This document shows, piece after piece, positions 1,389-30,301 of a stretch of DNA of 64,000 nt (positions are counted from its first letter, which is position 1; every line of letters starts with the position of its first letter). Origin of the DNA: an uncultured Pseudomonadales bacterium (lineage in GTDB: Bacteria > Patescibacteriota > Microgenomatia > UBA1400 > PJMF01); assembly GCA_964511345.1 (NCBI GenBank), contig CAZEEV010000002.1, forward strand, positions 66,770-130,769. Direction: 5' to 3'. The notes beneath the pieces are model-generated. The model was not told the DNA's origin, made no database searches, and saw only the letters and a list, made by a program, of their open reading frames with translations. The position numbers were made by a program, and so were the translations under genes.

Positions 1389-1423
1389 AATTTAGAAATT
1401 TAATAAGTAAAAAGGAGCGATTT

Positions 1424-1828: not shown

Positions 1829-1845
1829 TCATCAAGAATTTAGAA

Positions 1846-1876
1846 AAACCCGCTTCTTAACCAAGCGGGTTTTTTA
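1846..1876 (+). terminator. Rho-independent terminator (aaacccgctt…aagcgggtttttt)
   Basis: GC-rich 9-10 bp stem with a 6-nt loop and a T6 run, immediately after the paralog 4 stop. Confidence 0.7.
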
Positions 1877-1925
1877 ATACTTAATTTTGCTTTAGGAAAA
1901 AATAAAGATATAATCTAAAAAAGAC

Positions 1926-2291
1926 ATGAAAATAATCCCACAAGCTTATGCTCAAACTAAAGAATGGTCAGAAATTGGCGCCGGTTGTGTCAGCGAAGAT
2001 GGCGTCGCCACGGTTCAAGGTTTTGGTTGCATGATGGCCAACGTGTTATCGGTCTTTTTAACCGTACTCGGCATTGTAGGATTTGTCATGATCATCTACG
2101 CAGCTTTCAACATGATGATTATGGGTGGTAATAGCCAAGCAACTGAGAAATCCAAAAATACCATTACCTATGCCATTATTGGGATTATTCTAGCCTTATC
2201 GTCTTTTATCATTATTAATCTAATTGCCAACTTCACTGGATTGGATGTGATTAAAAATTTCTCTATTCCTGGTTCTGGGAAGCAATGGTAA
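1926..2291 (+). CDS. Divergent T4SS pilin-like two-TM protein, paralog 5
   Basis: 121 aa with two hydrophobic helices separated by 'MGGNSQATEKSKNT'. It keeps the array architecture but its loop motif is degenerate. A TATAAT sits at 1909-1914 with TTGCTT 16 nt upstream. Confidence 0.45.
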   Translation: MKIIPQAYAQTKEWSEIGAGCVSEDGVATVQGFGCMMANVLSVFLTVLGIVGFVMIIYAAFNMMIMGGNSQATEKSKNTITYAIIGIILALSSFIIINLIANFTGLDVIKNFSIPGSGKQW

Positions 2292-12899: not shown

Positions 12900-14009
12900 C
12901 TAATTATTTACTCTAAATGGCATAGCAATATAGAAATAATTATCAATTTTAGTGTCTTTAAAAATAGCCGGTTTTAAACTTTCATTCATACCAAAAACTA
13001 AAAAGTTGGGTTTGACAGCATTAATAAAATCAATCAAATAATTGACATTAAAAGCAATTTCTCCCGTCATTTCAGAAGAGTTTTTTATCATAATCTCGCC
13101 AGAATATTCGCCTGAAGAAGGAGATTGTGAAGAAATTAGCATTCTTTCTTTTTCTATTGTTAATCTCACAATATTAGAGGCATCTCTAGAGAAAATAGCT
13201 GCTCTTTTCAGTTGAGTTAAAAATTCTTCACCTTCAAATTCAACTGTTAAATTGAAATTTGGAGGAATTATTTTCTCATAAGGAGGATAATCACCCTCAA
13301 TTAGACGAACATACATTTCAACGCTATTTATTTTAAACAGTAATTGCTTTAATTCGTCTGAAACTAGTATTTGAACACTCTTAACTTCTGTTTGTTTAGC
13401 AATTCTATAAAGCTCATTTAAGGCTTTGGCGGGAATCAAAATTGCCTTCTCCTGTTTTGAGTTAATTGTTTTAAGGAATAAGCTGCTTAAACGAAAGCCA
13501 TCTGTAGCAATTACCTCCAAGCCTTTATCATTAAATTTTAATAGCAAAGCAGTTAAAACTGGTCTACTCTGATCGAGACTGGCGCAAAAAGAAACTAAAT
13601 TCTGAATTTTTTCCAAATCTTCAATATCTAAAGAAAAAAAATCCCCCTCCACAATTGGAAAACTCGGAAATTCCTCACTGTTTTGACAAGCTAGGCGACT
13701 AACTGTTTTTCCTTGAGAAATAATTAAAAAATTATCTTTTAATTTAAGAGAGATTTTACCGTTTTCCAAAGAATTAATAATGCTTTTAAACAATTCACCA
13801 TTAACTATTAATTCTCCTTCTTCTTCCACTTCAATTATTAATTCTGTTTTAATTCCTAAATAAAGATCGGTTGCAGAGAGCACGAGCTTGCTTCCTTTAA
13901 CACTTAAAAGGATTGAAGATAAAACAGTGATTTGTGGTTTGGTGGGAATTACTTTTTGAAGGTAATTAATAGAGTTTTTTAAATTTTCTTGTAGAACATT
14001 GAATTTCAT
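12900..14009 (-). CDS. dnaN: DNA polymerase III beta sliding clamp
   Basis: N-terminus 'MKFNVLQENLKNSINYLQKVIP…ILSSILL' and the three-domain clamp pattern. 369 aa. Confidence 0.85.
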   Translation of the reverse strand: MKFNVLQENLKNSINYLQKVIPTKPQITVLSSILLSVKGSKLVLSATDLYLGIKTELIIEVEEEGELIVNGELFKSIINSLENGKISLKLKDNFLIISQGKTVSRLACQNSEEFPSFPIVEGDFFSLDIEDLEKIQNLVSFCASLDQSRPVLTALLLKFNDKGLEVIATDGFRLSSLFLKTINSKQEKAILIPAKALNELYRIAKQTEVKSVQILVSDELKQLLFKINSVEMYVRLIEGDYPPYEKIIPPNFNLTVEFEGEEFLTQLKRAAIFSRDASNIVRLTIEKERMLISSQSPSSGEYSGEIMIKNSSEMTGEIAFNVNYLIDFINAVKPNFLVFGMNESLKPAIFKDTKIDNYFYIAMPFRVNN

Positions 14010-14318
14010 ATTTTCTTTTATTTAATTATATATTTTTAGTAGTTGTAGTAGTAGGGTATGTGCGTAAGTTAATATTCATTCCTTTTTTAGTCTAGTCCAT
14101 TTCTTCTAAATTTATGTTTAAAAACGGTCTTTTATTGTTGATTATTTTGTTAGAATGTGTGAATTATTGTTTATAAAAATGAAAGTTTATTCACAGTCCT
14201 ATAAGTTTTTAATGTTATTGTTAACAAGCTTTCAACTTCTTTTCCACTGATTTTTCCACAATTGTTGATAAACTGAACTTACTTTTATGTTTAACATAAC
14301 TTTTAATTGATAAATCTG
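14010..14318. promoter_or_regulatory. Candidate oriC: AT-rich dnaA-dnaN intergenic region with DnaA boxes
   Basis: One perfect box TTATTCACA (14187-14195). One-mismatch boxes at 14158-14166 (reverse) and 14252-14260 (TTTTCCACA). A two-mismatch box at 14241-14249. A very AT-rich segment next to dnaN could serve as the unwinding element. Confidence 0.45.
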
Positions 14319-15896
14319 TTAATTTGATATAGCAATTAACGACATTTTCATTGCAGAAACATCTTGTTGAATATTTTGATCAATAATTAAGTCCTGTTCT
14401 ATCTTTTTAATAGCATGAATTACACTACTATGATCCCTACCGGAAAACCATTGCCCGATTTCCTCCAGAGGAATCTGCAACTCATTTCTTAGTAGATACA
14501 TAGCAATATGTCTAGCTTTCACTAATTCTTTACTACGTCTTTTTCCTCTAACAGCGCTCTGTTTTATACGATAATGATTGGCAACGGTTTTAATAATGTC
14601 TTGAGGTTTCGCTCTAATAATTTTTTGTTGATTTTGTCTAACTTCAGTTTGTAGGATTTTGTCAATTAAAGCAGAGTCGATGTTTAGATTCTGTAGTTCT
14701 ACTGCTGAACGAATTTTTTTAATAATCCCTTCAATACGACGAGCGCTATCAACTTGAGAGGCGATTTTTTGAGCCAATTCAATAGGAATATCAAGCTTAT
14801 TAGCCTGAGCTTTTAATAATAAAATAGCAGTGCGCAATTCAAAGGTTGGTTGTTGAATGTCAATCATGAGTCCAGCCTCAAAACGAGACCTTAGCCGGTC
14901 TTCTAAGAGACTTATCTCTTGCGGTGGTCTATCCGAAGTCATAATAATCTGTGAGTTGATAGCAATCAGAGCATTAAAAGTGTGAAAAAATTCTTCTTGC
15001 ACAGAATTTTTACCAGCAATAAATTGAATGTCGTCTAAAAGTAGGAGATTGGTTTTGCGATATTTGTTTTTTAATTGTAGAGTGTTGTGGGTTTTAATTG
15101 CCTTAACGATTTCATTGGTGAACTGTTCTCCAGAGGCATAAATAATTTCCGCTTCCGGGTTATTTTGTAGCATGTGGTGAGCAACCGCATGAATTAAATG
15201 GGTTTTACCAACTCCCACTCCACCATAGAGAAAAAGCGGATTGTAGCTAGTCCCTGGATTGTTAGCGACGGCTGTGGCTGCGGCGTGAGCCATTTCATTA
15301 CTCGACGAGACTGCAAAGCTTTCAAAAGTATAATCTTGTCTCAAACCGATCTGCGAGGCCCTAACCTTCAAACGATCAAAAGTATTGTTATTAATATTTG
15401 CTTGAGAAAACAACTCTTCCACTGTCGGCGAGGGACTATTTTGATTATTTCCAGGAAAACTTTTACCAAAAGCAAGATTATTTCTAGACTCATTGAAATT
15501 GCGTCCATTAATTTCTTTGTAAATCGATTCTTCTTTTTCTGTTTTTTCTGAGAAATAATCTATTTGTACTGAAGGTGATTTTTTATTGGCTTGTCTTAAA
15601 TCAGTGACAATAAACTCTATTTCAAGTGGTTTATTAATGTATTTTTCCAAAGCAGTTTTAATTTGCGAGTAAAGATTGGATTTGAGATTGGTTACATGGA
15701 AGGCAGTCATACAACTAATAGTGGCGATGGCTTTTTGATCATCCTCAATTTTAATAGAAGTGAGTGGACTAGGCACAATCCAAGTATTAAAAAAAGCCGG
15801 GCTAAGACTGGCCTCCAAATCAACCTTGGCCATTTGCCAGACTTGTTTTACTGTTTCTAAATCATAGATTTGTTCAGACATATCGTCTTTCTTCAA
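14319..15896 (-). CDS. dnaA: Chromosomal replication initiator DnaA
   Basis: Walker A 'GGVGVGKTHL', Walker B 'LLLLDDIQFIAG', and the C-terminal DNA-binding helix 'ELVKARHIAMYLLRNELQIPLEEIGQWFSGRDHSSVIHA'. Confidence 0.9.
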   Translation of the reverse strand: MKKDDMSEQIYDLETVKQVWQMAKVDLEASLSPAFFNTWIVPSPLTSIKIEDDQKAIATISCMTAFHVTNLKSNLYSQIKTALEKYINKPLEIEFIVTDLRQANKKSPSVQIDYFSEKTEKEESIYKEINGRNFNESRNNLAFGKSFPGNNQNSPSPTVEELFSQANINNNTFDRLKVRASQIGLRQDYTFESFAVSSSNEMAHAAATAVANNPGTSYNPLFLYGGVGVGKTHLIHAVAHHMLQNNPEAEIIYASGEQFTNEIVKAIKTHNTLQLKNKYRKTNLLLLDDIQFIAGKNSVQEEFFHTFNALIAINSQIIMTSDRPPQEISLLEDRLRSRFEAGLMIDIQQPTFELRTAILLLKAQANKLDIPIELAQKIASQVDSARRIEGIIKKIRSAVELQNLNIDSALIDKILQTEVRQNQQKIIRAKPQDIIKTVANHYRIKQSAVRGKRRSKELVKARHIAMYLLRNELQIPLEEIGQWFSGRDHSSVIHAIKKIEQDLIIDQNIQQDVSAMKMSLIAISN

Positions 15897-15940
15897 GATA
15901 GGGAGGGCAGAATGGAGCAGCTAAAAATCTTCGTGCTTAC

Positions 15941-15961
15941 TTATACACAAAGTTTTCCACA
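15941..15961. promoter_or_regulatory. Two DnaA boxes (TTATACACA perfect; TTTTCCACA 1 mismatch) in the 93-bp gap between VirB4 stop and dnaA start
   Basis: Direct match to the TTATNCACA consensus, read from sequence. Likely dnaA autoregulatory/promoter boxes. Confidence 0.4.
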
Positions 15962-15989
15962 ATTAGCAAGGGGCAATTTTTTAATGAAA

Positions 15990-18140
15990 CTATTTTGGTG
16001 GCTGATAATCATCAATATTGTAAACACCGTGTTGATCTGGTTGAAGAGCTTTTTCTTCTGATTCTCCAAAGATAGTCTTGATTTTAAACTCATTTTTTTG
16101 ATCTGCTTTAAGTGCTTGATCTGCTTTTTTGGTAGAATTTTCCAAAAGATCTTCTTCAATTTTTACGTCAGTACCTTGCCAAGGCATTTTAGTTGTTATT
16201 TGATCATTCTGATTTTTCTTAAAATCAAGACTGTTTTCTAAACGACGTTTTTTCAACTCTCTTACTTTTTGGTAACTTTCATAGCTTTCAGTTCTGAGAC
16301 TAGCTTCAGCGCTAAGGGCTTTTTTAGTCTCAATTTCATCTTTTTTCTTCAAAATTTCTTCTGGATTAGTAGTGATAACCTCGTGTTCTTCTTGAGAGGC
16401 AATTACCCTAAGTGCGACGTGATTCTGACCAGCAAAAAATATTCCTTCGCCAACATCTGAGGAAACCAATAGCTGTCTCTCACCTTCAGAAAGATAGAAA
16501 ACCTGAGTGAGAATTGGAATAGAAGCTGTGGACTGCTTCATTAAAAATTGAATAGAAGCGTTGGAAACAATGGCTTTGCCATAATCATTGCGCAAGAAAT
16601 CTTCCACGTCTTGAGTAATAGTGGTAATACCTAAATAATATTTACGAGCTCTTTTAACCATCGAATACACAAAAGCGGCACTATCAGGGTGCATCATAAA
16701 GTACCAAGCTTCATCAATAACTAAAATGCGTCTCTTCAAGTTCTTTTTTATTCTTGTCCAGATGAAATCAAGAATGACGTACATGGCAATTGGTCGCAAC
16801 GATTCTTCCATTTCTTTAACCGAAAAAACCGTAAATTGAGAACTAATGTCAATGTTGGAAGCTTGATTAAAAATTCCTCTAAAAGAACCAGTAATAAACT
16901 TTTCTAAGCGAGCTGCTAAATCATCACTTTCTTCTCTTTCCATGCCAATTAAAGTTTTATACAAATCTTCCATAAGTGGAGGAGTGTTCTTTTGTGTAGC
17001 TGGATCCGGCGTAATACCCTTGGATTTATAAGCGGCAATAATAGCACGATCGAGTAAGGCTTCTTGCTGAGGAGTCATTTCTCCAAGCATAACTTTTAGA
17101 AGTCCGTGAATGGAGAGAATTTTTTGCCCCAATTCATTTTCACCTTCTTCATAAATGCTAGATAAATCAAAAGGATTGATTTTAGCCTCTGAGCCAAAAG
17201 TGAAGTTAATATATTCGCCACCAACCATTTTACAAAGTTCTTCATACTCATGTTCTGGATCAAGCACAATTACTTCAGCATCAAACATTAGTTGACGCAA
17301 AATTTCCAACTTAACAGTGTAGGATTTACCAGCGCCAGACTTGGCAAATATTACCATATTGGCATTTTCCATTTTGAAACGATCAAAAATGACTAAGGAA
17401 TCATTGTGTTCATTAATTCCATAGACGATGCCGGTTTCCATGGTTAATTCAGAAGAGGTAAAAGGAAAAGTGGTGGCTAGAGAAGTAGTGTCCATATTTC
17501 TTACCACTGATAGGCGATCGACGCCCATGGGCAAAGTGGTTTTGAAGCCTTCATCCATTTGTAGAGCGGATTTTTTAGAGACGATCATTAAAGCCCCTAA
17601 AGTTCCCTGAATACTTTTAGTAATCTTGTCCAGCATTTCTTTGCTATCTGCCCTAACCGTAACATACAGGCCAAATTGGAAAAATCTTTCCGAACCAGCA
17701 GCCAGTTGTTCTCTCATGGTTCTGGCGTCGTTTAATTTGATTTCAGTATTAATATTACTGATTTTCCCAGATCTAATATCTGAAGTAATTTCTGCCTCCA
17801 TTTCAGTAATTTTTCTTTTCAAATTGTCTAAGATGTCACCAGTGTCAGACGGGAAAATAAACATTGAAATGTTAGCTTGATACGGATAATTGATTAAAGG
17901 AGATAGCCAGTTGGCTGGCACAGCTCTTGGATAGCCAGCAATAAATAAAGTACGAGTGTAAGTGGAATTGATTTTTTGGTAAGTAAAGTCAACCTCAATA
18001 GCTTCTGGAGCAATAATGTCTTGGATGGTTACTAGGCCACGAGAAAATTCGCTCAATTTTTCTTGAGTGTATTCTTCGACATTGATTTTGTTCTGATCGG
18101 TCGAAACAGTTGGTTTTTTCTTTCCAAAAAAATTTAACAT
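15990..18140 (-). CDS. virB4: T4SS ATPase VirB4 (Gram-positive TcpF/PrgJ/Tn916-Orf16-like)
   Basis: 716 aa. N-domain 'TYTRTLFIAGYPRAVPANWL', Walker A 'MVIFAKSGAGKSYT', and Walker B 'RRILVIDEAWYFMMH'. Confidence 0.8.
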   Translation of the reverse strand: MLNFFGKKKPTVSTDQNKINVEEYTQEKLSEFSRGLVTIQDIIAPEAIEVDFTYQKINSTYTRTLFIAGYPRAVPANWLSPLINYPYQANISMFIFPSDTGDILDNLKRKITEMEAEITSDIRSGKISNINTEIKLNDARTMREQLAAGSERFFQFGLYVTVRADSKEMLDKITKSIQGTLGALMIVSKKSALQMDEGFKTTLPMGVDRLSVVRNMDTTSLATTFPFTSSELTMETGIVYGINEHNDSLVIFDRFKMENANMVIFAKSGAGKSYTVKLEILRQLMFDAEVIVLDPEHEYEELCKMVGGEYINFTFGSEAKINPFDLSSIYEEGENELGQKILSIHGLLKVMLGEMTPQQEALLDRAIIAAYKSKGITPDPATQKNTPPLMEDLYKTLIGMEREESDDLAARLEKFITGSFRGIFNQASNIDISSQFTVFSVKEMEESLRPIAMYVILDFIWTRIKKNLKRRILVIDEAWYFMMHPDSAAFVYSMVKRARKYYLGITTITQDVEDFLRNDYGKAIVSNASIQFLMKQSTASIPILTQVFYLSEGERQLLVSSDVGEGIFFAGQNHVALRVIASQEEHEVITTNPEEILKKKDEIETKKALSAEASLRTESYESYQKVRELKKRRLENSLDFKKNQNDQITTKMPWQGTDVKIEEDLLENSTKKADQALKADQKNEFKIKTIFGESEEKALQPDQHGVYNIDDYQPPK

Positions 18141-18146
18141 ATTACA

Positions 18147-19517
18147 TTATAATTTGTTTGAAGTGTCTTGACTTTCTTCCGTAGTTGCTTGCTCTGGAAC
18201 TTGTTCAAACTGACTCTGTAAAGGAGCAATTTCTTCTGTAAAATCATTCTGTTCTTGAATTGGAGCTAGTCCTGGATTAGGTTCTGAAGTTGGCACTGGC
18301 GCTGATTCCAACTCTCGTTTCGCCTCCGATGTCGCCTCCGACGTCGTCGGTTCTGGAACAAGATTTGAATTTAAAGTCAAATTTACATCAGGAGACTGAC
18401 TTGGTTCTAAAGTTGTATTTAGAATCGACTCAGTAGTTGGTTCAGCAATTGGTTTGATGGTTGGCGTTGGTTCTAAAACAAGCTCAGGAGCTGGAACTTG
18501 ATTTATTGTTGTGTCTGGCACAGCTTCTAATATTGTAGCCTGAGTAGAATCAGCGGTGAAGTTTGGTGTTAAAACTGGCGCAGATTCTGGCGCAACTGTT
18601 AATTCTGGAATGGAATTTTGTTCCGAGTTCATCTCTGGAGCGATGATTGGACTACTATTAATAGTTGGGTCAGCATCAATAATTTGGTTGGCGTCAGTAG
18701 TTCGGTTAATATCAATATTACTATTAGGAATAGTGGATTCAATGTGGGCAACAATGGGTTCGGTGCTAGTAACAGTGGAACTCGGAGCTTCGCCGGTGAG
18801 CATTTCTTGAGGTGTTGGGTTTTGCATAATTTTTTCTCCAAAACTCGCCCTAACTAGGGAAGTCGTGTAATTTTCATTATTGCTGATTTCTTGTCCCTCA
18901 GCAGCTTCGGGATTGTAATTGATATAAAAATTTTGAATGATTTCTTGAGTGTTTAATTGTCTAGTGTAAAGTCCAAGACGATTAAATTGAGAGATTAGAT
19001 GATCTCGGCGAGGTTCTAGCAAATTGGCGGCTTTTTCCAAAATAATACTTTTTTCAATAGTATTGATGTCAAAAGTAGTTTTTCCAGGCAAAACATTAGT
19101 AGGGGTAATTAAACCCATCTCGGCTGGACTGGCGGGAATTGTAACGTAAAAACGTTTTTCCAAAACATTTCTTTCTTTAATTAAAGTAGCAACAAAATCA
19201 CGATATTGTTTAATAAGATTGGCTTTTCTATCCGAGCTGGCTTTTTGTATTTGCTCATCAAGCAAGCGCAGGTATTTAGTAACGTCTTTGGTTTGTGATT
19301 GAATGCTAATTTGGATAGGGTAGTTAAGAGAATTAAGTAAAGACCCATAGGTAAACATAATGGCGTCTTGTTCTTGCTCAGCTAGAAGACTGAAATTCAT
19401 TGTGCCGACCTGGAGGATAATGGAGGCGGTACCATCTTTGAGAAGAATAGTATTATTAACAATGTCGTAAACATCAAGAAATTCTTGCGTAGTGGAACTA
19501 ATGACTTTTTCGCTCAT
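18147..19517 (-). CDS. T4SS-associated protein: N-terminal ~230-aa domain resembling the VirB4/TrbE N-terminal domain, followed by a ~225-aa disordered Pro/Thr/Ser/Glu-rich tail
   Basis: 'ILLKDGTASIILQVGTMNFSLLAEQEQDAIMF' parallels the CagE/TrbE/VirB4 N-domain pattern. The C-terminal half is low complexity (PEPTTSE…). It lies 6 nt upstream of virB4. Confidence 0.35.
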   Translation of the reverse strand: MSEKVISSTTQEFLDVYDIVNNTILLKDGTASIILQVGTMNFSLLAEQEQDAIMFTYGSLLNSLNYPIQISIQSQTKDVTKYLRLLDEQIQKASSDRKANLIKQYRDFVATLIKERNVLEKRFYVTIPASPAEMGLITPTNVLPGKTTFDINTIEKSIILEKAANLLEPRRDHLISQFNRLGLYTRQLNTQEIIQNFYINYNPEAAEGQEISNNENYTTSLVRASFGEKIMQNPTPQEMLTGEAPSSTVTSTEPIVAHIESTIPNSNIDINRTTDANQIIDADPTINSSPIIAPEMNSEQNSIPELTVAPESAPVLTPNFTADSTQATILEAVPDTTINQVPAPELVLEPTPTIKPIAEPTTESILNTTLEPSQSPDVNLTLNSNLVPEPTTSEATSEAKRELESAPVPTSEPNPGLAPIQEQNDFTEEIAPLQSQFEQVPEQATTEESQDTSNKL

Positions 19518-19542
19518 GAGCTGAGATATAGTGTACTAAATT

Positions 19543-20400
19543 TTAGGGCTTGATTACAAGGGGATTGATTTGCTGACCATTCAACTCGACTGTCATTTTT
19601 GGAAAAACGAGATCATCTTTTTCTACAGTGATTTGGTAACTGCCGTTTTCCAAGGGTCGATCGGTCAAGAATTTGCCATCCTGATCACTTTTCAAAACTC
19701 TTACTGTTTGCTGATTTTGATCCTTAATTTCTACGATGGCATGACCAATTTTGTGTTCACTTTTATCAATGATGGTGCCGGCAATTTGGTTTGGCAATAG
19801 CTTTTGTTCTTCACTAATTTCTTTAGGTAGTTTGAGCTTGCGCACTCTAGTTTGTAAATTGGGCTTTTCTTGTTCTGAGTTTTCTATGCTAATTTCACTT
19901 TGTTGCACTTCTACGTTATCAAACTCGTTTAGAACGGCATTGATTTTTTGATTTTCAGCTAAGTCAAATTGATCCTGACTTTTTTCACTGTCGGGAATAC
20001 TTTTGAGATATTCAAAAATACGCTGTTTGCGTGCAGGATTTAAATTAATATCTGGAGCGAAAAAATCTTCGCGAGTAGAGGTGATTTTATAATTAAAAAA
20101 ATCTGGAATTTTATTTGATTTTTTCCAGAAAAACTTAGTAGGTTTATAAATATTTTGGAAAAAAGTTTTGATCCAATGGTCAAGTGGTCTTTCTTCAACT
20201 GGCACAAAAGCAATTGCTGCTCCAAGTCCAACAATAGTAAAAACCAGTGGCCATTTTACGATGCCAATGAGATTTGTTTTATAAATAATGAAAGCCAAGA
20301 CAGCTGCTACGGCTAATTCGGCAAACTGCTTAAGAGTCATGCTTCCTACGAGATGAAACTTATAGTTGGTGATATCTTGCGGAATAGGGTGTTGTTTCAT
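19543..20400 (-). CDS. PrgI/VirB3-like T4SS membrane protein with C-terminal carboxypeptidase-regulatory-like beta domain
   Basis: N-terminus 'YKFHLVGSMTLKQFAELAVAAVLAFII…WPLVFTIVGLGAAIAFVPVEERPLDHWIKTFF' follows the PrgI-family two-TM pattern. The C-terminus 'GTIIDKSEHKIGHAIVEIKDQNQQTVRVLKSDQDGKFLTD…GSYQITV' resembles a CarboxypepD_reg fold. Confidence 0.5.
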   Translation of the reverse strand: MKQHPIPQDITNYKFHLVGSMTLKQFAELAVAAVLAFIIYKTNLIGIVKWPLVFTIVGLGAAIAFVPVEERPLDHWIKTFFQNIYKPTKFFWKKSNKIPDFFNYKITSTREDFFAPDINLNPARKQRIFEYLKSIPDSEKSQDQFDLAENQKINAVLNEFDNVEVQQSEISIENSEQEKPNLQTRVRKLKLPKEISEEQKLLPNQIAGTIIDKSEHKIGHAIVEIKDQNQQTVRVLKSDQDGKFLTDRPLENGSYQITVEKDDLVFPKMTVELNGQQINPLVIKP

Positions 20401-20448
20401 GACTTATTCCATTTTAGCAGAAAAAGCAAAGCCTTGTTTGTGCTAGAC

Positions 20449-21462
20449 TTATTTCTCTATAGCACTGGCTACGGCCGGAGTGATGATTTCTGCCTGAATA
20501 TTGATGCCGGCAGAATTAGTTAGCTTGCCGCGAAATTTGTAAAATGGATAAGCGATCTTTAGATTGCTGTCGTAGCGATATTCAATTTCTACTGAGTACA
20601 AATTAGCCTCATCAATCCAATTCAAATCAATGACCTCAACTATTTCACTGCTAGCATTGATAATAGAAGCATTGCCTTTCTTTATGTTGTTTATCGCTTG
20701 ATTAATAGATATAGCAGGCAATTGTTTGGAAATTTGAAATTCTTGGAAAAAATCACGGAAATTAACTCTTTTTAAATTGTAAAAATTATCAACTCGACAA
20801 AAAAATGGATAATCATTTTGGTTTTCATAAAAAACTTTATAACCATCAAGCTCATAAGTCAGAGGAATTTGTGCAAAAGTAGCTCTATTTTCATCAATTA
20901 TATTTTGCTCAAAGCCAGAATCTAAATAAATAATACTGTCTTTTTGTACCACTAAAGGCACTAATATATTGTATTTGCTATAAAAATTTTGGCAAACTTC
21001 GATAGCTGAGTCAGTGATAATTTTTAAATTGTTTTCACCTTCATTTTTTACTCCACTATTAAAAGTATAATAGTGTTCGTAATTATTTTTTGCTAAAGCA
21101 TGATTCTCACCAAGCCAATAATTTTCTATATTAGAATCTTTGTTTAGTTGATATTCAATAATTAATTTATTAGCCAACTCATCTGCCAAACCAGATGTAT
21201 TTTGAGCTTGGTAAATATTAAAAAATTCTGGAACAGCAATTTCCGTACCGCTAAAATCAATTTTTTTAAAAGTGCTTTGAGTGTTGTCATAATTATTAAC
21301 AACAAAGTCATTAGCAATGATTTTCTCTTCGACGGGTGTGATAATTTTGAAAATAACTGATAGAAGTAAAGCTCCTAGTATTAAAATCCCCAAAAATAAA
21401 AGAAAATTATTTTTTTTCTTTACGGGTTGATTTGTTTTAGGTGTGCTGTTGTTCATAATCAA
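20449..21462 (-). CDS. Bitopic membrane protein (N-terminal TM + ~290-aa external domain); VirB8/TcpC-like candidate
   Basis: Single N-terminal TM 'FLLFLGILILGALLLSVIF'. Size and position (between the hydrolase-like giant and the PrgI-like gene) match TcpC/Orf13-type VirB8 analogs. No sequence motif to confirm. Confidence 0.3.
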   Translation of the reverse strand: MIMNNSTPKTNQPVKKKNNFLLFLGILILGALLLSVIFKIITPVEEKIIANDFVVNNYDNTQSTFKKIDFSGTEIAVPEFFNIYQAQNTSGLADELANKLIIEYQLNKDSNIENYWLGENHALAKNNYEHYYTFNSGVKNEGENNLKIITDSAIEVCQNFYSKYNILVPLVVQKDSIIYLDSGFEQNIIDENRATFAQIPLTYELDGYKVFYENQNDYPFFCRVDNFYNLKRVNFRDFFQEFQISKQLPAISINQAINNIKKGNASIINASSEIVEVIDLNWIDEANLYSVEIEYRYDSNLKIAYPFYKFRGKLTNSAGINIQAEIITPAVASAIEK

Positions 21463-21468
21463 AAATAA

Positions 21469-24400
21469 TTAATAACAAGTCGTCACGCCCTGTCCATATT
21501 TTGGAGGATAGTTGCCGCCATCATCTTCTGGTACAAGGGTTTCAATAATAGAAAGTCCTGGATTATTAGCCATATAGAAAACTCCGTTATGAGCAGCTCC
21601 GTAATGCAGATGAACTCCATCTGAAAACCCCTTATTGCCCATTAAGCCAATCATAAACCCAGCCTCGACCTGCATACATTGATTCGGAGTGCTCAAACTA
21701 GGGTTCGGTTCTTCGAAGTGTAAAAACTGTATCTTTTGCGTTGTGCCGCCATTTTCGAAACTTAACACATAAAAACATCCCTCGCTTCCTCCACATCCCC
21801 CAAAACATAGATTTCCATCAAATGGAACATAAACTGGAGGACCGTAAAGTGCAGCCTCACCGCAACCGTTACAACCAATATCATAAGCATCCATAAAACT
21901 TAGGCCCGGTGGTTTGGAATGAGAATAATCACCATAAGGCATTTGAGATATGTGACCAGTAGCTGGCCAACACCCTGCGTCGCCTCCGCATTCACCCAAA
22001 CAAACCCTAGCGGCCGTAATGACGTTATCTGTGCCTGCCATGAAAGAATTTTGATAATAAAAATTTACCTCAATAGTGTTAAGAATAGCAGTGTTGTTGT
22101 AGTTACTACTCAGATCATCCAGGGTGTAAGTAAAAGTTAGGCTTTCTCCAGCTGGAATAATGATAAATTCGCCACCTCCAGTTTGAAAACTTGCTTCTGC
22201 AGCATCGGCATCAGTTTCTTCCTCATTTCCTGGCGCGTAACTGAGAAGGGGAGATATTTTTAGAGGCTCGCTGCTAAGCCCAACTTGTTCTTTGATGAGA
22301 TTTTGAAAATAATCGAAACCCAACTCTTTACTGCTGTCTATGCTGGGCATGGCTTGTCCGCTTTCTTCCCAACCTTTAGAACTTTGACCAAATTTAATTT
22401 GATCTTTAATATTGCTAATCTGTAAAGAAAAATCTTCTTTTGGTTTAATGGTGACGGTATATTCGATGGAAAGCGGAAATGAAGGTGAAGTACACTTAGC
22501 ACCTTCATTTTCTAAACCAATACAGCCTTTGGTGATTTTAGCTGTCTTTTCAATCGAAGCATACTTGGAGGTTTTTTCAATTGAATTGGTAATTTCTGAT
22601 TCACTAATTGGAAAATCCGTCAAAAAAGCTGAATTAAGACTGGCTTGTTGAAGAATAAAAAACAAAGCCGTGGTGCCAAAAGCAGCAGCTACTGCTTGGC
22701 TGGCAGTAACCATAGCTGAAGATGCAAATTGACTAAAAAAACCTCCGTTAGTTGGTGTTGTTTGAGAGATCACTTTGCTTTGGTTTTGTAAAGTTGCCTG
22801 ACCTCCAACGGGGGTCTGTGTGATTGTGGCTCCGCTGGCTCCACCAATAGTGTGAGTTGCCTTGCCAGCTCCCCAAATAGCATTTTTAGCACCACCACCC
22901 CCTCCGAAAATATTACGGAAAAACAAGACAGCTGGTAAAGCTAAAATTAGCCATGGTAGCATAGCTGCCAGCGCAGCAAAAATGGCACCTAGTACCAGGA
23001 TTGGCCAATTTTTTTTGACCCACTCTAGAACTTTTTCTAAACCCATTTCTATCAACTGTTCTTTGAGTTTTTTAATGATAGGCGCAGCAGCCTCTGCTGC
23101 TTTCAAAGCTTGACCCCAACCACCAGCTGCATCCAAAGCCATATAGAGGCCCTGGCTCAATGCTTTAGTGGCGAGTTTTTTACCTTGCTGACCAAGAGCA
23201 CTGTCCATCAAGCCAGTGCCTTGATAATTTCCTTGTGGATTGAAGGCTTGCTGCATGAAACCGCCACCATTAGCGTCAAAAGCACCCTCGCCAAAATTCT
23301 CTGCCATCTGCAGCATGTAGAGATCCATGGGATTGATCTGCGGGGCAATCTGATCTTGGAAAGTAACAATGTCGTATGTTTCATAGGTGACGCCAGGATT
23401 GTAGAACTCAAAGTAAATTTTGAGAGTGCTTTGTTGTTCGGCGCCAGATAATTTGCTTAATTCTTGGGTCAAAAATTTTTCTAATAGAGCCGCTTGCTGG
23501 CTTTGCCACTCTTGCATTTCTTGACTGCTTGCTCCGACTCTGCCATATAACTCATTGGTAATTTGTCCACCACCATAAGTCAAATTAAGAATGCCTAGGT
23601 TACGTAATTGAGCAAGTTTTTGTGGATCTTTTTGGATTTCTGCTAGTAATTTCTGAGCCTCTTCTGGAGTATATTTTTCAAGAGCGATTTCTTGACGAAC
23701 CTCTAGCGACCAAAGAGCTCGCTTACGTTTCCAATAGAAAATAATTAGATTGGCAAGTTCTTCTTTGTGAGCATCAAAAGCAGCTTTGTCTAGACTATTA
23801 CCAAAAATGTTAACAAATCTGTTGTAATCAAAATTTTTTGGATCGGAAATTAAAAATTCTGGCGGAAGGCCTTGCTGAATAAAAACTTCAATCAGCGGGC
23901 GCACATTGTCTATAACCAATTTTATTCTAGAATTGTCTTGATAACCAGTAATTTCTGCGATTTTTTTGGAAAAAACCTCATCTAGGTATTGTTCGTTGCC
24001 AACGACATTGAGTTCTGATTCAATCGCTTTGACAAAGTTTGGGTCAACTTTGCTTTCTTCGATCATTTGTTGAGCTGTTTCACTGTTTAAGTTTTCGTCT
24101 TTAGATTTTTCATTTTCTCGTAGCTTCTGCTCGCCATATTTAGCGATGTCGCGCACCGCGCTATTGAGCAAATTCAGGCCATAGACATCCATTAATAAGC
24201 CAAAAGCTGCCTGATTACTAAAATTAATTCTTTGTGATGGATCACTGATTAATTTATCCAGGGAAAATTGTCCTGTGAGGAGCAAATTTTCTACCTGTGA
24301 AAAAGCCCGATCCATTAATTTTTGTCTGATAGCTAATGGCAATTGGTCGAAGGTGACAACTGTACCAGGTGGCAAACCAATTTTTGCCAGCGAAGCCTCA

Positions 24401-25188
24401 TTAAAATATTTGCTTAAAGCTTGATTAATAGTGATAATCGAAAGCGATTGAAGATAAAGTCTGGATTGAGGATCGAGCTCAGCGATTTTGAGAGGGGCTT
24501 TGTCGTCTGGAGGCTTTTGATCTTTATTTCTTTGGGTTTCTTGTTTTTTATGGTCTTGATCTTGCTGTTTTTTATCTTTATCTGTTTGTGGTATAGGTAA
24601 ACCAAAACCTCCACCTCCATCACCGCTAGAACTAACTTCATCTTGTTTTTCTTCCTCAATTTTTAGTTCTTCAGAACCAATACTTGGTTTGAGAATTAGA
24701 TAAATTAACTTAATTCTATCAACGATTCTTCTTGAATAATCAAAGTATTCAATTTTTTGCAATTCTTCTACGGTAATTTTTTCACTGGCTGGATTGACAC
24801 CAATGAGTGTAAATGTACTACCTAATTTATCCAATTCTTGTCGCTGGACTGAATCCAAAGAAATGTTTTTACTACTCAGTGAAGTGCGGATTTGCTCGAT
24901 AAAATTAACTAGATCAGAAAGAAATAAGTATGGAACTTTACCTCTTGGCGGAGCAACGCCATCTAAAATGTCTTGAGCAGTGCTTAAATCAAACTCTCCT
25001 CCATAGCTAAAACCCTCAATGGCAAATTCACCCTTAACTTTTTTGTCACCAGCTGATTCGGCGTAAAAATTAGTAATCCAATTGGCACTTTTCTGCAAAA
25101 TTTCATTGATTTGTACAGCACTAAGACTATCGACGCCAGCTAATTTTTTTAGCTCAATTCGAGTATTTTGATTAATGTCTTCTGGCAT
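21469..25188 (-). CDS. 1239-aa membrane protein with Gly-rich TM region and C-terminal Cys-rich M23-peptidase-like domain (candidate T4SS cell-wall hydrolase, VirB1/TcpG/PrgK analog)
   Basis: C-terminus '…MDAYDIG…GPPVYVPFDGNL…GFMIGLMGNKGFSDGVHLHYGAAHNGVFYMANNPGLSI' parallels the M23 motifs (compare '[31 protein letters not shown]' in the LysM-M23 gene at 50527). Mid-protein TM helices are present. First gene of the minus-strand operon. Confidence 0.45.
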   Translation of the reverse strand: MPEDINQNTRIELKKLAGVDSLSAVQINEILQKSANWITNFYAESAGDKKVKGEFAIEGFSYGGEFDLSTAQDILDGVAPPRGKVPYLFLSDLVNFIEQIRTSLSSKNISLDSVQRQELDKLGSTFTLIGVNPASEKITVEELQKIEYFDYSRRIVDRIKLIYLILKPSIGSEELKIEEEKQDEVSSSGDGGGGFGLPIPQTDKDKKQQDQDHKKQETQRNKDQKPPDDKAPLKIAELDPQSRLYLQSLSIITINQALSKYFNEASLAKIGLPPGTVVTFDQLPLAIRQKLMDRAFSQVENLLLTGQFSLDKLISDPSQRINFSNQAAFGLLMDVYGLNLLNSAVRDIAKYGEQKLRENEKSKDENLNSETAQQMIEESKVDPNFVKAIESELNVVGNEQYLDEVFSKKIAEITGYQDNSRIKLVIDNVRPLIEVFIQQGLPPEFLISDPKNFDYNRFVNIFGNSLDKAAFDAHKEELANLIIFYWKRKRALWSLEVRQEIALEKYTPEEAQKLLAEIQKDPQKLAQLRNLGILNLTYGGGQITNELYGRVGASSQEMQEWQSQQAALLEKFLTQELSKLSGAEQQSTLKIYFEFYNPGVTYETYDIVTFQDQIAPQINPMDLYMLQMAENFGEGAFDANGGGFMQQAFNPQGNYQGTGLMDSALGQQGKKLATKALSQGLYMALDAAGGWGQALKAAEAAAPIIKKLKEQLIEMGLEKVLEWVKKNWPILVLGAIFAALAAMLPWLILALPAVLFFRNIFGGGGGAKNAIWGAGKATHTIGGASGATITQTPVGGQATLQNQSKVISQTTPTNGGFFSQFASSAMVTASQAVAAAFGTTALFFILQQASLNSAFLTDFPISESEITNSIEKTSKYASIEKTAKITKGCIGLENEGAKCTSPSFPLSIEYTVTIKPKEDFSLQISNIKDQIKFGQSSKGWEESGQAMPSIDSSKELGFDYFQNLIKEQVGLSSEPLKISPLLSYAPGNEEETDADAAEASFQTGGGEFIIIPAGESLTFTYTLDDLSSNYNNTAILNTIEVNFYYQNSFMAGTDNVITAARVCLGECGGDAGCWPATGHISQMPYGDYSHSKPPGLSFMDAYDIGCNGCGEAALYGPPVYVPFDGNLCFGGCGGSEGCFYVLSFENGGTTQKIQFLHFEEPNPSLSTPNQCMQVEAGFMIGLMGNKGFSDGVHLHYGAAHNGVFYMANNPGLSIIETLVPEDDGGNYPPKYGQGVTTCY

Positions 25189-25249: not shown

Positions 25250-28200
25250 TTGCTCTTGGCTTTTGCTAATATTTTGCATAAAATAGTAGCTATGGCAGGT
25301 GAATTTGTTAAAGATAGTCTTGAAAATTTGATTAATTCTATATCAGTAAAATCGTCTGGTTCTTTTGATGATATCAGATATGGAAATTTAGAACCAAGTA
25401 AAGATTCTTTGACAAAGTTAACTGATAAAGATAGAAATGTTGTAGATATTATAAAAAACACTGAGCTAATTGGAATATTCAAGAAAATAAATGCTCTGGA
25501 CAACGTAATTGACGCTTTTCAAAAACAAACTACGGCTGAAGGAATTGTCAATAATCTCTTTGACATAATAAGCGATCTAAACACAGACCTCTTAATGGCG
25601 GATGAAGCCTCTCCTGAGTACCAAAATATTTTGCAATCTTTGGCAGTGGCTTTTTACATGTACGAACAAGTTTTATACCCAGTAGTCAAAGAGGTTGTGG
25701 AGAATAATGTATCCACCAATGACGAAGAGCAATCCACTAGTGAGTGGATTGCTGACAAAACAAGTGAAATCGAAGATTTAAAAATTAGGATCGAAACACA
25801 ACTCTTTTTAGAAGGTATTTCTAAAACAGAAAGACATAGCAAAGATAAATTTATAGAATCTGAGTTTAATAATGGAATAAAAAATATATTAATAGATTTG
25901 GAAAAAAGAAAAAGAAGCTTGTCAGGTGACGCGCAAGAATTGGACAATTTTAAAATTTTTATTTCTGCCGAAAGAAAAAAATTTTTCACTGAATGGAATG
26001 TGTCACCTGACGAAAATGAAGAGACTTTAAATGTTTCAAAGATGACCCTCCGCGAAATTGCTGATTACGTATTGAGAAAAGAATTGCCTTTTTGGACTGG
26101 CGAACATGATAACTGGACAGATGAAAATGATAGAAAAGTTGTTGATGCTCTCATTCAAAGATTATGGAAGGATAATCATAAAATTGTTGGTTTAACCAAT
26201 GATTTTATTCCTGATCCATCAAATGAAAAAGTTCCAGATCCAAAAGAAAATGGACTTAGATTTAGTGATCTTGAATTTAGGGAAATAGTTAGCGACCTAC
26301 AAATTCTTGGGCTGTTTGGAATAATGAATGTTAAAGGTAAAGAGAGAAAAGATGATGGCGCTGCTGAGGGTTTGTTACCAGAATTAGAAGCTTGTCTTTC
26401 TAAATTACAAATGAATAATAAAGAATTATTGAATTTAACAACCTTTGCTCATCCAAGAACGGGTATGATTTTATATGAGTTTCTTAGGAGGATGAAAGAT
26501 CAGGGAGCTCTAAGAAAAGGAGAAATTCCAAAATTAAAACGAGGAGAAGTACCAACTGGTTTTGGTCGAGCTCCTATGAACGACAGGTTGGTTATGAGAA
26601 ATGGGCAAAAAGTTTTGCTTTTTGGAGACAGATTTATCAAAGAACTGAAAGAAAATGGTGAAGGTATGGATGATAAATTTTATGAGGGTACCCCTCTTGA
26701 GAGTGGAGATGTTTTAATTTTGGATTATTCTGGAACAGAAGTTGATCCTGAAACTAGAATGCCAGACGGCAAAATAAGAAAACCAGATGGTTCTGAGTGG
26801 AAGGAAATAAACGACAGAGTTGTAAAGAGAGATAACAAAGATACATTGCTAGTAGGAGATAGGCTGGTCAAAATAGTTAATGGTAAGGGTGTTGAGATTG
26901 GCAAAAAATGGTACGATTACGAACCTAAAGATACAACAGATATGCCTCTTTATGAATTTGACGAACGCTTCTGTTATGAAACTTTGGCTGCTGACTCTGG
27001 AAAAGCAAGGCTGAGGCTTTATGCCGCCGATCTAGCCTCAAAACTAGAGGATCAAAGATTGGAAATCAAAGCCGCTGAAATAGCAGGAGAAGAGCCTGAT
27101 CAGAGCAGAATTCATTTTAAAGAGTTAATTGGTTATCAGTTGCCCGATCCAAACGACAAACAATTTGGTGAAAGAGATGTTGAAAGACTAAAGATGTATT
27201 CTAGGTATCTGTTCTTTTCTTTTCCATTTTTAACAAATATCTTAGCTATGAGACAAGAGAGAACGTGCACGCCTGCTCATGGCTTTGCCAATAAAGACAT
27301 TCAATTCACCTGGATATTTGACATACTTGGTTTTATTGTTCATAAATCTCAAAGATATGGCAACTCTGACACTGCTTTTTACTACCTATTGAAGTTTTTT
27401 CCACCACTTCAAGAGGGGCACTATGGTGCTGGAGGTGATGTTAGAAGGTTGAACCAAATTAGAGATCTAATAATAAAGTATGATAAGATTTTCGACGATA
27501 GAGCTGGCGAAAGTTTGTTTCCAAAACTCCCTTACGGATCCTCATATTTTCATACAGCTTTGAGCATGTTGGCAATGGCTCCTGGAGAGCACACCAGATT
27601 AATGGGAAAAGCTAAATTAGCTGATGGTCGTATATTAGAAGGAACACAAGAAAAGCCAGTATTGCTGGCTCTAGGAGGTGAAGAGAAAAAAAATGAGAAA
27701 TTTAAAAGTCCTTATAACTTTTCAAATATTTATACCTCTATTAGAGCGTGGGATAAATTTATAACTGATATAGCTAAAGATCTTCCTCCCAAATTAAACA
27801 TACAAGACATTGCTGGGGGAGGTGGTAAAGAAAAATCTTTAATTAGTCAAAGATATGGCGATGATGTTGGTCAAGCAAAAATGAGCAGTACTAAGACTTT
27901 AGAAAAAGATAAAGATCCTAATTTAGCCGATTTTGATCATTTGACTATGTCAGCAGTATTCATGTGGGATACTGTAAAGAGATTGTTTCGTCAATTTCAA
28001 TCAAATAGTGTAGAAGTGAGAAAAAATCTTTATAAAGAAATGGAAAAAGGATTTATAGAAACAGCATCTAGAGGAGGGTTGTCGGAGGGATCGGCTGCAA
28101 CAGTTTTAAAATATGTTTTAGCACGGATGTCTAGCCCTGATAAAAATGGTAAATTTTATGCTAAAGATAGGTCATTCGCAGGAATGAATCCGTGTTTAGA

Positions 28201-28519
28201 TGCACTTGAACCGACTGTAAAAAGTATAAATGCTCAACGAGTCTTTGAATACGTAGAAGCTCTTTGGAACTATCAACACTCTGATGTCAATGGCAATGTA
28301 GTAAAACTTTTCCCTTTTAAATTGGCTAATGCTGGAAGTCTTGGGTCAGGCATATTAAATAGACCTCTTATTAATGTAAGACAGGCTCTAAATGCAGATC
28401 CAGATATTACAAAATATCAAGGCTATCTTCTTGGCTACGAAGAAATTAATGGTAAGAGAAGGCGTGTTGAACTGCCTGAGCCTATAAAAAGAATTAATCT
28501 AGAAAAACACGACGACTAG
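25250..28519 (+). CDS. Large hypothetical soluble protein (1089 aa), no recognisable motif, no P-loop, no TM; possibly starts at the internal ATG near 25292 ('MAGEF')
   Basis: Long intact ORF divergently transcribed from the T4SS operon. I could not recognise any catalytic motif. Confidence 0.5.
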   Translation: MLLAFANILHKIVAMAGEFVKDSLENLINSISVKSSGSFDDIRYGNLEPSKDSLTKLTDKDRNVVDIIKNTELIGIFKKINALDNVIDAFQKQTTAEGIVNNLFDIISDLNTDLLMADEASPEYQNILQSLAVAFYMYEQVLYPVVKEVVENNVSTNDEEQSTSEWIADKTSEIEDLKIRIETQLFLEGISKTERHSKDKFIESEFNNGIKNILIDLEKRKRSLSGDAQELDNFKIFISAERKKFFTEWNVSPDENEETLNVSKMTLREIADYVLRKELPFWTGEHDNWTDENDRKVVDALIQRLWKDNHKIVGLTNDFIPDPSNEKVPDPKENGLRFSDLEFREIVSDLQILGLFGIMNVKGKERKDDGAAEGLLPELEACLSKLQMNNKELLNLTTFAHPRTGMILYEFLRRMKDQGALRKGEIPKLKRGEVPTGFGRAPMNDRLVMRNGQKVLLFGDRFIKELKENGEGMDDKFYEGTPLESGDVLILDYSGTEVDPETRMPDGKIRKPDGSEWKEINDRVVKRDNKDTLLVGDRLVKIVNGKGVEIGKKWYDYEPKDTTDMPLYEFDERFCYETLAADSGKARLRLYAADLASKLEDQRLEIKAAEIAGEEPDQSRIHFKELIGYQLPDPNDKQFGERDVERLKMYSRYLFFSFPFLTNILAMRQERTCTPAHGFANKDIQFTWIFDILGFIVHKSQRYGNSDTAFYYLLKFFPPLQEGHYGAGGDVRRLNQIRDLIIKYDKIFDDRAGESLFPKLPYGSSYFHTALSMLAMAPGEHTRLMGKAKLADGRILEGTQEKPVLLALGGEEKKNEKFKSPYNFSNIYTSIRAWDKFITDIAKDLPPKLNIQDIAGGGGKEKSLISQRYGDDVGQAKMSSTKTLEKDKDPNLADFDHLTMSAVFMWDTVKRLFRQFQSNSVEVRKNLYKEMEKGFIETASRGGLSEGSAATVLKYVLARMSSPDKNGKFYAKDRSFAGMNPCLDALEPTVKSINAQRVFEYVEALWNYQHSDVNGNVVKLFPFKLANAGSLGSGILNRPLINVRQALNADPDITKYQGYLLGYEEINGKRRRVELPEPIKRINLEKHDD

Positions 28520-30203: not shown

Positions 30204-30301
30204 AAGACAAGTATATTTTAGATGAAGAGCGGAAAAACTGCAAAGGTAAACTTGATAATTTAACTTGACAACTGGCTTAAAAACATTTAAAACAATCATA
30301 A

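Follow-up and report, generated by a model that had tools for sequence, protein, structure and literature searches.

A type IV secretion system operon beside dnaA in a Patescibacteria genome: a very probably non-conjugative core system with a putative dnaA promoter at its end

Introduction

Why does the core operon of a type IV secretion system (T4SS) lie directly against dnaA, and does a system placed there serve conjugation? The question is raised by a 64-kb stretch of contig CAZEEV010000002.1 (the window, by which we mean the whole 64,000-nucleotide (nt) stretch that was analysed), in which five minus-strand genes of T4SS type occupy positions 15990-25188 and are followed by dnaA. An earlier reading, made from the letters and their open reading frames (ORFs) and called here the sequence-only reading, had proposed that the T4SS is chromosomally fixed and does something other than conjugation. 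We consider it very probable that 15990-25188 is the core operon of a chromosomal, vertically inherited, non-conjugative T4SS of Patescibacteria (candidate phyla radiation, CPR; Minisyncoccota), and that the junction with dnaA holds a promoter belonging to dnaA itself.

Much of bacterial diversity belongs to the Patescibacteria, and little is understood of the way in which they live off their hosts. The T4SS is among the few machines genetically shown to be essential for epibiotic growth. By transposon sequencing (Tn-seq), an unusual monoderm-type T4SS was found to be essential for the epibiotic growth of Southlakia epibionticum, where the cluster SEML1_0006-0019 has essential pilin genes among its members, and neither a relaxase nor a coupling protein is recognisable in it (Wang et al. 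2023, PMC10633639). A survey of 3035 genomes placed the Patescibacteria VirB4 proteins in a clade nested in MPF_FATA, with TrsD as the commonest VirB4 partner, PrgI/VirB3 also present, and arrays of PF18895 pilins, especially in Microgenomatia (Quinonero-Coronel et al. 2025, PMC12102498). In the same survey, genes for the type IV coupling protein (T4CP) were usually far from virB4, relaxases were found in only 103 of the 3035 genomes, and a frequent proximity to dnaA, dnaN, rnpA and rpmH was ascribed to gene dosage (PMC12102498). These points about the Patescibacteria T4SS were restated in a 2025 review (PMC12857230), and tubular structures that are possibly T4SS pili have been seen at a parasite-host interface (bioRxiv 10.64898/2026.06.21.733656). 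The T4SS, the missing relaxase, the proximity to dnaA and the idea of a repurposing for host interaction are already published (PMC10633639, PMC12102498), and since they were described in 2023 and 2025, the present locus is a typical example rather than a discovery.

The T4SS core operon

Five minus-strand ORFs fill 15990-25188, separated by gaps of 6, 48, 25 and 6 nt, and they lie exactly where the sequence-only reading had placed five tightly packed genes. From the first to the last gene of the operon they are:

21469..25188, minus strand: T4SS cell-wall hydrolase candidate, 1239 amino acids (aa)
20449..21462, minus strand: bitopic membrane protein, 337 aa, with one N-terminal transmembrane (TM) segment in the TM scan
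19543..20400, minus strand: PrgI/VirB3-like protein, 285 aa, with a TM hairpin within residues 21-68
18147..19517, minus strand: TrsD-like protein, 456 aa, a free-standing VirB4 N-domain homologue with a variable Pro/Ser/Thr-rich tail
15990..18140, minus strand: VirB4 ATPase, 716 aa

The VirB4 and PrgI assignments, on which the proposal of a T4SS depended, held in profile searches, in which matches were judged against Pfam gathering scores and NCBIfam cutoffs. The 716-aa product of the last gene matches NF045971 (CD1110 family) with 393.8 bits against a cutoff of 325. It also matches the Pfam domain P-loop_TraG (E 1.7e-26), the VirB4 C-terminal domain in PDB entry 4ag5 (E 3e-51) and the Mbov_0397 family (276 bits), and its translation shows Walker A (GAGKS) and Walker B (VIDEAW) motifs. 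Given that the match to NF045971 is confined to profile positions 170-734, this VirB4 is without the usual N-terminal domain, which is encoded by the preceding TrsD-like gene. Residues 9-217 of that 456-aa protein match NF045975, NF041427 (TrsD, E 1e-4) and NF045971; apart from TrsD, the matches are to the N-terminal parts of VirB4 profiles, and the orthologue in a related locus (L081) belongs to PF26593, TraC-like. Only about the N-terminal half is conserved among relatives, and the protein is 28% identical (E 4e-21) to a 274-aa protein of Pontibacillus whose gene comes before virB4. The description of this gene as a VirB4-N-like protein with a long tail rich in proline, serine and threonine was borne out.

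The 285-aa protein reaches 29.8 bits against PF12666 (PrgI), above the gathering score of 27. The added C-terminal domain is a beta-sandwich that matches CarboxypepD_reg (PF13620) with 29.9 bits, below the gathering score of 32.3 and with an E value of 7e-7. Both families are found in the L081 orthologue. A PrgI/VirB3-like protein with a CarboxypepD_reg-like domain, as first read, remains the appropriate description.

In the 1239-aa protein, the first ~720 residues are without a TM segment, and one follows near residues 730-748. The C-terminus consists of a Cys-rich beta-sandwich and a LytM/M23 domain, confirming what had been read as M23-like, with the LytM fold, the zinc-binding and catalytic His/Asp and the HxH residues. 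This domain resembles that of the pCF10 hydrolase PrgK.

The 337-aa protein departs from expectation. It is bitopic, as predicted, with its single TM segment at the N-terminus, but the VirB8-like role assigned to it did not stand. A structure model compared with PDB libraries gives an extracytoplasmic part that is a YycH/YycI-like stack of alpha+beta modules, and the NTF2-like fold of VirB8, TcpC and PrgL was not found in it. The top structural match is 5COZ/EUBREC_2869, on which a literature search found nothing relevant. A YycH/YycI-like protein thus fills the slot where a VirB8-like subunit is expected.

Taken together, these assignments support the identification of 15990-25188 as a monoderm-type (MPF_FATA-like) T4SS core. 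Upstream, 25189-25249 includes a TATAAT hexamer only ~11 nt from the ATG with which the operon begins. Given how near this hexamer is to the ATG, the operon transcript may have almost no leader.

Conservation and inheritance

Is the position beside dnaA a peculiarity of one genome? One genome per species was scanned, which gave 80 loci (L001-L080), all from metagenome-assembled genomes (MAGs) of Patescibacteria; 76 of them have enough flank for the virB4-dnaA junction to be counted. In all 76, dnaA lies directly 3' of virB4 on the same strand. The comparative check that had been proposed, of whether the cluster always stands beside dnaA, is thus strongly positive, and it supports the view of a T4SS chromosomally fixed among core genes at the origin. 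Of the 80 loci, 73 have a detected TrsD-like gene upstream of virB4 and 69 a detected prgI, in both cases wherever the flank reaches, and the more divergent genes for the 1239-aa and 337-aa proteins were detected in 40 and 43 loci, respectively. After dnaA, most loci have dnaN, yidC, jag, rnhA and a DUF4012 gene; rnpA was detected in the closer relatives only.

Homologues of VirB4 number more than 8000. Of these, the best 120 share 70-89% identity with the protein in the window, and every named organism among them is of a Patescibacteria lineage; across the 80 loci identity ranges from 69 to 89%. The nearest plasmid copies, from monoderm bacteria, reach at most 35%. Over the same loci, VirB4 has a median identity to the window of 79%, DnaA of 54% and DnaN of 46%, from which we conclude that the ATPase is under stronger constraint than the replication initiator. 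Other T4SS subunits diverge fast, with identities of 27-31% for the 337-aa and 1239-aa proteins.

The locus has the marks of the Patescibacteria T4SS clade. Its VirB4, placed by best hits, falls with the clade nested in MPF_FATA; TrsD and PrgI/VirB3 homologues adjoin virB4; PF18895 pilin genes, often in arrays in this clade, are present as five plus two genes above the gathering score; and within the window the system is chromosomal, near dnaA and free of an associated relaxase. As a core system, this T4SS is inherited vertically, and it is no mobile element.

Among the related MAG records, many have titles such as 'uncultured Pseudomonadales', 'Limisphaerales' or 'candidate division TM6' (e.g., L007, CP011212.1). 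Gene content and protein identities put these mislabelled MAGs with Pacebacteria and Woesebacteria, and the public labels are unreliable.

Mobile-element signatures

The opposite reading would take the cluster for a conjugative element, or for what decay has left of an integrative and conjugative element (ICE), lying beside dnaA by chance. In its favour, the closest described homologues of all recognisable parts belong to monoderm conjugation systems, and the window contains a VirD4-like protein. However, the scan of window ORFs of at least 100 aa judged to be genes, run against Pfam or NCBIfam, found no match to relaxase or integrase families, as the sequence-only reading had stated. The window has no tRNA that could serve as a target and no Rfam match, and flanking att-type repeats, when sought, yielded only short AT-rich chance repeats. 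The combination of relaxase, integrase and flanking att repeats that would mark an ordinary integrative element is therefore missing from the window, and so is the arrangement of relaxase, oriT and coupling protein beside mating-pore genes that is typical of conjugative MPF_FATA systems and ICEs, given that there is no relaxase. The GC content is like that of the flanks. The context is invariant where an ICE would show a variable one: position and order are identical in 76 loci despite divergence of DnaA to ~50% identity, and the stronger constraint on VirB4 than on DnaA also argues against a passing element. Relaxases are rare across the phylum as well (103 of 3035 Patescibacteria genomes, PMC12102498). 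We regard a conjugative or decayed element as highly improbable here.

The junction with dnaA

If the operon is a fixed neighbour of dnaA, are the two also regulated together? The sequence-only reading had noted two DnaA boxes in the gap, and had considered both read-through into dnaA and control of the operon by DnaA. The features at the junction are:

14319..15896, minus strand: dnaA (TIGR00362, 445.6 bits; Bac_DnaA, E 6e-66)
15940..15969, minus strand: dnaA promoter-like block with two tandem DnaA-box-like 9-mers
15969..15964, minus strand: putative -35 element, TTGCTA
15961..15953, minus strand: box 1, TGTGGAAAA
15949..15941, minus strand: box 2, TGTGTATAA
15945..15940, minus strand: putative -10 element, TATAAG, with an 18-nt spacer to the -35

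The length first given for the gap, 93 bp, is right as the distance of 93 nt to the TTG at 15896. The likely true start of dnaA is the ATG at 15881, given that the relatives' alignments begin at residue 6 in many loci, and to this start the gap measures 108 nt.

DnaA boxes were scored as 9-mers with one mismatch to TTATCCACA. By this criterion the window as a whole has 23 sites where 17.8 are expected, which is not above chance, and no perfect box. Among relatives, the density in the virB4-dnaA gap is 9.7/kb against 0.49/kb locus-wide, a 20-fold difference. The pair TGTGGAAAA-n3-TGTGTATAA recurs with the exact 12-bp spacing in 49 of the 76 loci; no locus is without a box. In the 64 kb, TGTGGAAAA occurs only twice, once on each side of dnaA. 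When the gaps of ~75 loci are aligned on box 2, the consensus is CTTGc..a.TGTGGAAAACt.TGTGTATAA.T. The two boxes are thus real and conserved.

By comparison with the consensus, the conserved block reads as a sigma-70-type promoter of dnaA, with box 1 in the spacer and box 2 over the -10. A simple sigma-70 scan passed this promoter over, because the scan accepts a -10 element only if it ends in T; the promoter was recognised from its conservation. Such a layout, with boxes inside the promoter, is that of the classical autoregulated dnaA promoter, as in the dnaA genes of E. coli and B. subtilis. Most likely the two boxes autoregulate dnaA, with DnaA repressing its own gene there. Given that both boxes come after the final stop codon of the operon and fall within the promoter block of dnaA, they point to dnaA autoregulation and not to control of the T4SS. 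The idea that DnaA controls the T4SS operon was rejected on the same ground. The operon is an origin-proximal neighbour, and the position of the boxes does not support its status as a DnaA-regulated unit.

Read-through needs a separate weighing. In a one-unit model, the T4SS operon and dnaA would be a single transcription unit, with transcripts from a promoter upstream of 25188 crossing the 93-108 nt gap, and the boxes with bound DnaA would gate the read-through. If this were true, T4SS expression would be coupled to replication initiation. The shared strand and the adjacency in 76 of 76 loci fit this model, the boxes stand in the path of any read-through, and the gap holds no conserved hairpin or terminator (median fold z -0.35 over 69 loci). 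However, a full promoter-like block (-35, 18-nt spacer and -10) persists across lineages despite a DnaA identity of only ~50%, and this favours separate transcription of dnaA. At 15952..15929, the window and its closest relatives also share a weak hairpin with a T-run behind it (-9.4 kcal/mol and z -1.4 in the window), which again speaks against passage of transcripts. A single transcription unit is in our view unlikely. An intrinsic terminator between virB4 and dnaA was likewise rejected as a general feature, given that the hairpin of the window is not conserved.

A stronger version of the same thought is that the invariant virB4-dnaA junction is a coupling device, in which T4SS transcription reads into dnaA through the DnaA-occupied promoter. 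An obligate epibiont would then initiate replication only while its host-reaching machinery is expressed. Given the conserved independent dnaA promoter, we consider this less likely still, and would give it little credence. The reading that we prefer for the junction remains a dnaA promoter of its own, repressed by DnaA.

The 5' leader of dnaA also has a C-rich motif, CTGCC[CT], downstream of the promoter block (window 15904-15910, minus strand), in 44 of 68 loci. Its density in the leader is 5.3/kb against a background of 0.41/kb, and the 64-kb window has five CTGCCCY sites.

The replication origin

On the other side of dnaA, the following features bear on where replication starts:

12900..14009, minus strand: dnaN (TIGR00663, 258.7 bits)
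14010..14318, minus strand: probable oriC, the dnaA-dnaN gap of 309 nt
14187-14195, 14252-14260 and 14263-14271: DnaA-box-like sites in the dnaA-dnaN gap
14054..14037, minus strand: DnaA-trio-like run CTACTACTACAACTACTA (CTA/TTA repeats), ~45 nt before dnaN and followed by an AT-rich tract

The gap has ~25% GC and contains the AT-rich tract. At the equivalent place, 59 of 70 loci have a trio run of at least four units (median shuffle p of 0.0). The box-pair module of the virB4-dnaA gap is present twice, at 14239-14263 and 15940-15964, and the cumulative GC skew has its minimum at ~12-18 kb. DnaA-trios with an unwinding element are an arrangement described for Bacillus-type origins. With boxes, trios and an AT-rich tract all present and conserved, the unwinding site of oriC probably falls in the dnaA-dnaN gap. 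This would put the T4SS operon 2-11 kb from oriC, with transcription towards it.

This distance bears on the hypothesis that proximity to the origin serves gene dosage, with more copies of the operon and higher expression during replication (PMC12102498). A distance of 2-11 kb from the predicted oriC suits it, and proximity has been reported in several classes (PMC12102498). However, dosage effects of this kind are documented for fast growers. Patescibacteria are not known to grow fast. The operon would moreover run head-on to the fork leaving oriC rightwards, which is unusual for highly expressed genes, and dosage would explain proximity but not direct and invariant adjacency. Given that the documented cases are fast growers and that the operon faces the replication fork, the dosage explanation is weak, and we think it improbable as the reason for the placement.

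Other T4SS components and neighbours in the window

The inventory of T4SS parts in the sequence-only reading was correct for the five-gene core but omitted seven pilin genes, a VirD4-like protein and a conserved block upstream of the operon. These further parts and the neighbours of the core are:

232..2291, plus strand: VirB2-like pilin array of five small genes
25250..28519, plus strand: large, soluble protein, 1089 aa, divergent from the T4SS operon
28521..30317, minus strand: polytopic membrane protein, 598 aa, with a signal peptide and ~6-8 TM segments
31077..33938, minus strand: protein of 953 aa, encoded 3' of the two pilin-domain genes, with an N-terminal hydrophobic segment
33966..35761, minus strand: two proteins of ~300 aa, each with a C-terminal VirB2-like T4SS_pilin domain
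45517..47661, minus strand: divergent VirD4-like coupling protein, 27 kb away among housekeeping genes

All five small genes of the array match PF18895 (30.8-43.5 bits), and so do the two pilin-domain proteins (36.1 and 28.7 bits; gathering score 26.6). The latter have a signal peptide and two C-terminal TM segments, and the same pair is found in L081. Weak NF045849 matches occur both in the array and in the pair. The five arrayed pilins are mutually divergent, and their genes, ~14 kb from the T4SS core, have housekeeping genes (uppS, leuS) as neighbours.

The block that separates the operon from the pilin-domain pair encodes the 1089-aa protein, the polytopic 598-aa protein, a DHH-like protein and the 953-aa protein, and its layout (order, sizes and strands) recurs in contigs of more than 800 kb from two relatives. 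The 1089-aa protein has no Pfam, NCBIfam, PHROG or PDB match; L004-L006 and L009 (tblastn identity 23-57%) as well as L081/L082 have a gene in the same place and with the same orientation. The 953-aa protein has no PDB sequence or profile match, and a similar-sized gene stands at its position in L081 and L082. PHROGs gave marginal matches only, without bearing on function.

The 598-aa ORF as listed starts too early, given that orthologues in the alignment with L081 and L082 begin at the Met at 30203. From there, the protein comprises a signal peptide, a ~130-aa domain and a set of 6-8 TM segments that are highly conserved. Profile searches in Pfam, NCBIfam and PDB gave no match, and a weak similarity (27% over 156 aa, 35 bits) links it to a 779-aa protein at the corresponding position, upstream of the VirB3-, TrsD- and VirB4-like genes of Pontibacillus. 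We treat it as a candidate VirB6/PrgH analogue, which is a lead only. The VirB6 component has been reported as scarce in Microgenomatia, where this protein would be a candidate for it.

The VirD4-like protein exceeds the gathering scores of both TrwB_AAD_bind (47.9 bits against 20.5) and TraG-D_C (23.8 bits against 22); against NF045973, the CD1115 family, it scores 51 bits, far under the cutoff of 250. The TM scan predicted no TM segment in it. Its gene sits between radA/DUF5680 and rho, and the 620-nt stretch upstream of it (47662-48282) has no convincing ORF and no Rfam match.

Farther along the window, three type IV (N-methyl) pilin genes lie at 54980-56749 on the plus strand. They are followed at 56801-63976, on the minus strand, by the gene for a 2391-aa protein, glycine-rich and with laminin-G/concanavalin-like and Ig-like domains, which is likely a giant adhesin. 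GC content climbs to 0.44-0.46 within this gene.

Function and significance

What, then, would the system do? Given that no DNA-processing module lies nearby, a non-conjugative role in host interaction is the best reading, which agrees with the function other than conjugation that had been proposed at first. In this scenario, the LytM protein would open the symbiont's own cell wall, and the TrsD/VirB4 motor, together with PrgI, the polytopic candidate and the YycH/YycI-like protein, would assemble a channel as well as a VirB2-like pilus for contact with the host. The T4SS would then move macromolecules between host and epibiont and support host-dependent growth rather than conjugation. We suspect uptake of host-derived material to be the direction of transport, with export of effectors almost equally likely. 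Meanwhile, dnaA would be transcribed from its own DnaA-repressed promoter.

The machine might instead be mainly a device for attachment or pilus assembly, with VirB2-like pili acting as adhesins and no translocation of substrates. Seven pilin genes in the window, including the divergent five-gene array, would suit such a role, as would the possible T4SS pili seen at the host interface (bioRxiv 10.64898/2026.06.21.733656) and a coupling protein that is far from virB4 and not essential in Southlakia (PMC12102498). However, the experimentally implicated organelle of adhesion is the type IV pilus (PMC12857230), the genes for which the window holds at 54980-56749. The conservation of the VirB4 motor also fits pilus biogenesis, and it does not discriminate between adhesion and translocation. 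On balance we doubt that attachment is the main function, and we prefer a T4SS that translocates macromolecules between epibiont and host.

Several points weigh against the account given here. The function is drawn from homology and from one genetic study in another class, the Saccharimonadia, and the clade of VirB4 was assigned by best hits. A VirB8-like fold was not found, and the candidate VirB6 is proposed from topology, position and a 35-bit match. The search for a relaxase spanned only 64 kb of the genome. At the junction, the dnaA promoter is predicted from consensus, and box 2, TGTGTATAA, may have been conserved as a promoter element rather than as a DnaA site, given that it overlaps the putative -10. 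For box 1, the conservation has no such alternative explanation.

The locus is a clean and complete example of this T4SS from the Pacebacteria/Woesebacteria side of the phylum. It contributes small, testable additions, namely the higher conservation of VirB4 than of DnaA, the DnaA-box promoter junction, the placement of oriC and the YycH/YycI-like protein. In the literature searched, no paper names DnaA boxes together with Patescibacteria, and the details of promoter, boxes and trios appear to be minor additions to the published picture. These additions leave current understanding unchanged and are mainly starting points for work on regulation and channel architecture.

Comparison with known systems

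Set beside the Patescibacteria-clade T4SS as published, the locus differs in nothing essential. It shares with that system the adjacent TrsD and PrgI/VirB3, the PF18895 arrays, the distant T4CP and the lack of a relaxase, as well as the chromosomal position near dnaA, dnaN, rpmH and rnpA and the peptidase genes beside the core (PMC12102498, PMC10633639). PrgI adjoins TrsD-VirB4 in all loci examined here, as against only 22.6% of Microgenomatia VirB3 hits in the survey (PMC12102498). The details that the locus adds to this picture are the YycH/YycI-like bitopic partner, the 1239-aa LytM hydrolase and the virB4-dnaA gap with its conserved, putative DnaA-box promoter.

The origin side of the locus can be compared with the Firmicutes type. 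In B. subtilis, boxes lie upstream of dnaA, and boxes, DnaA-trios and an AT-rich tract lie between dnaA and dnaN. The present region is similar in having box clusters on both sides of dnaA, trios and an AT-rich tract before dnaN, and a dnaA gene transcribed towards the unwinding site. It differs in that the region upstream of dnaA is only ~100 nt long and is bounded by the T4SS operon rather than by rpmH-rnpA, which have here moved downstream of dnaN.

Conjugative systems of monoderm bacteria offer a further comparison, which we also extended to the Mbov_0395 and Mbov_0397 families of the Mycoplasma ICE. In pCF10 (prgH-prgL) and Tn916 (orf13-orf17), the hydrolase gene and the VirB8-like gene follow virB4. 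Here the hydrolase and bitopic genes precede virB4, the bitopic protein is not VirB8/TcpC-like, and there is no relaxase or integrase. The gene order had been said to match Tn916 and pCF10; of that claim only the segment PrgI-TrsD-VirB4 fits, and it does so as TrsC-TrsD-TrsE of pGO1 (PMC12102498). Indeed, TrsC (VirB3-like), TrsD and TrsE (VirB4) of the trs region of pGO1/pSK41 correspond to the 285-, 456- and 716-aa genes, and among MPF_FATA systems TrsD is confined to the pGO1/pSK41 subclass (PMC12102498). Unlike the present locus, these plasmids encode a relaxase, possess an oriT, keep the coupling protein adjacent and are without VirB2-like pilins; VirB4 of the window is at most 35% identical to any plasmid copy.

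The nearest VirB4 outside the Patescibacteria is that of Pontibacillus sp. ALD_SL1 (locus L083, NZ_CP062975.1 347247-367067), on an 898-kb replicon typed as non-mobilizable. The module there is similar to the present locus and its surroundings: it encodes Mbov_0395-family pilin-like, polytopic, small and TrsD-like proteins, a CD1110-family VirB4 and a 1050-aa M23 metalloendopeptidase. The M23 gene, however, follows virB4, the identities are only 27-35%, and the module lies off the origin, beside flagellar genes. We suspect that it may be another non-conjugative use of this type of T4SS, in this case in Firmicutes.

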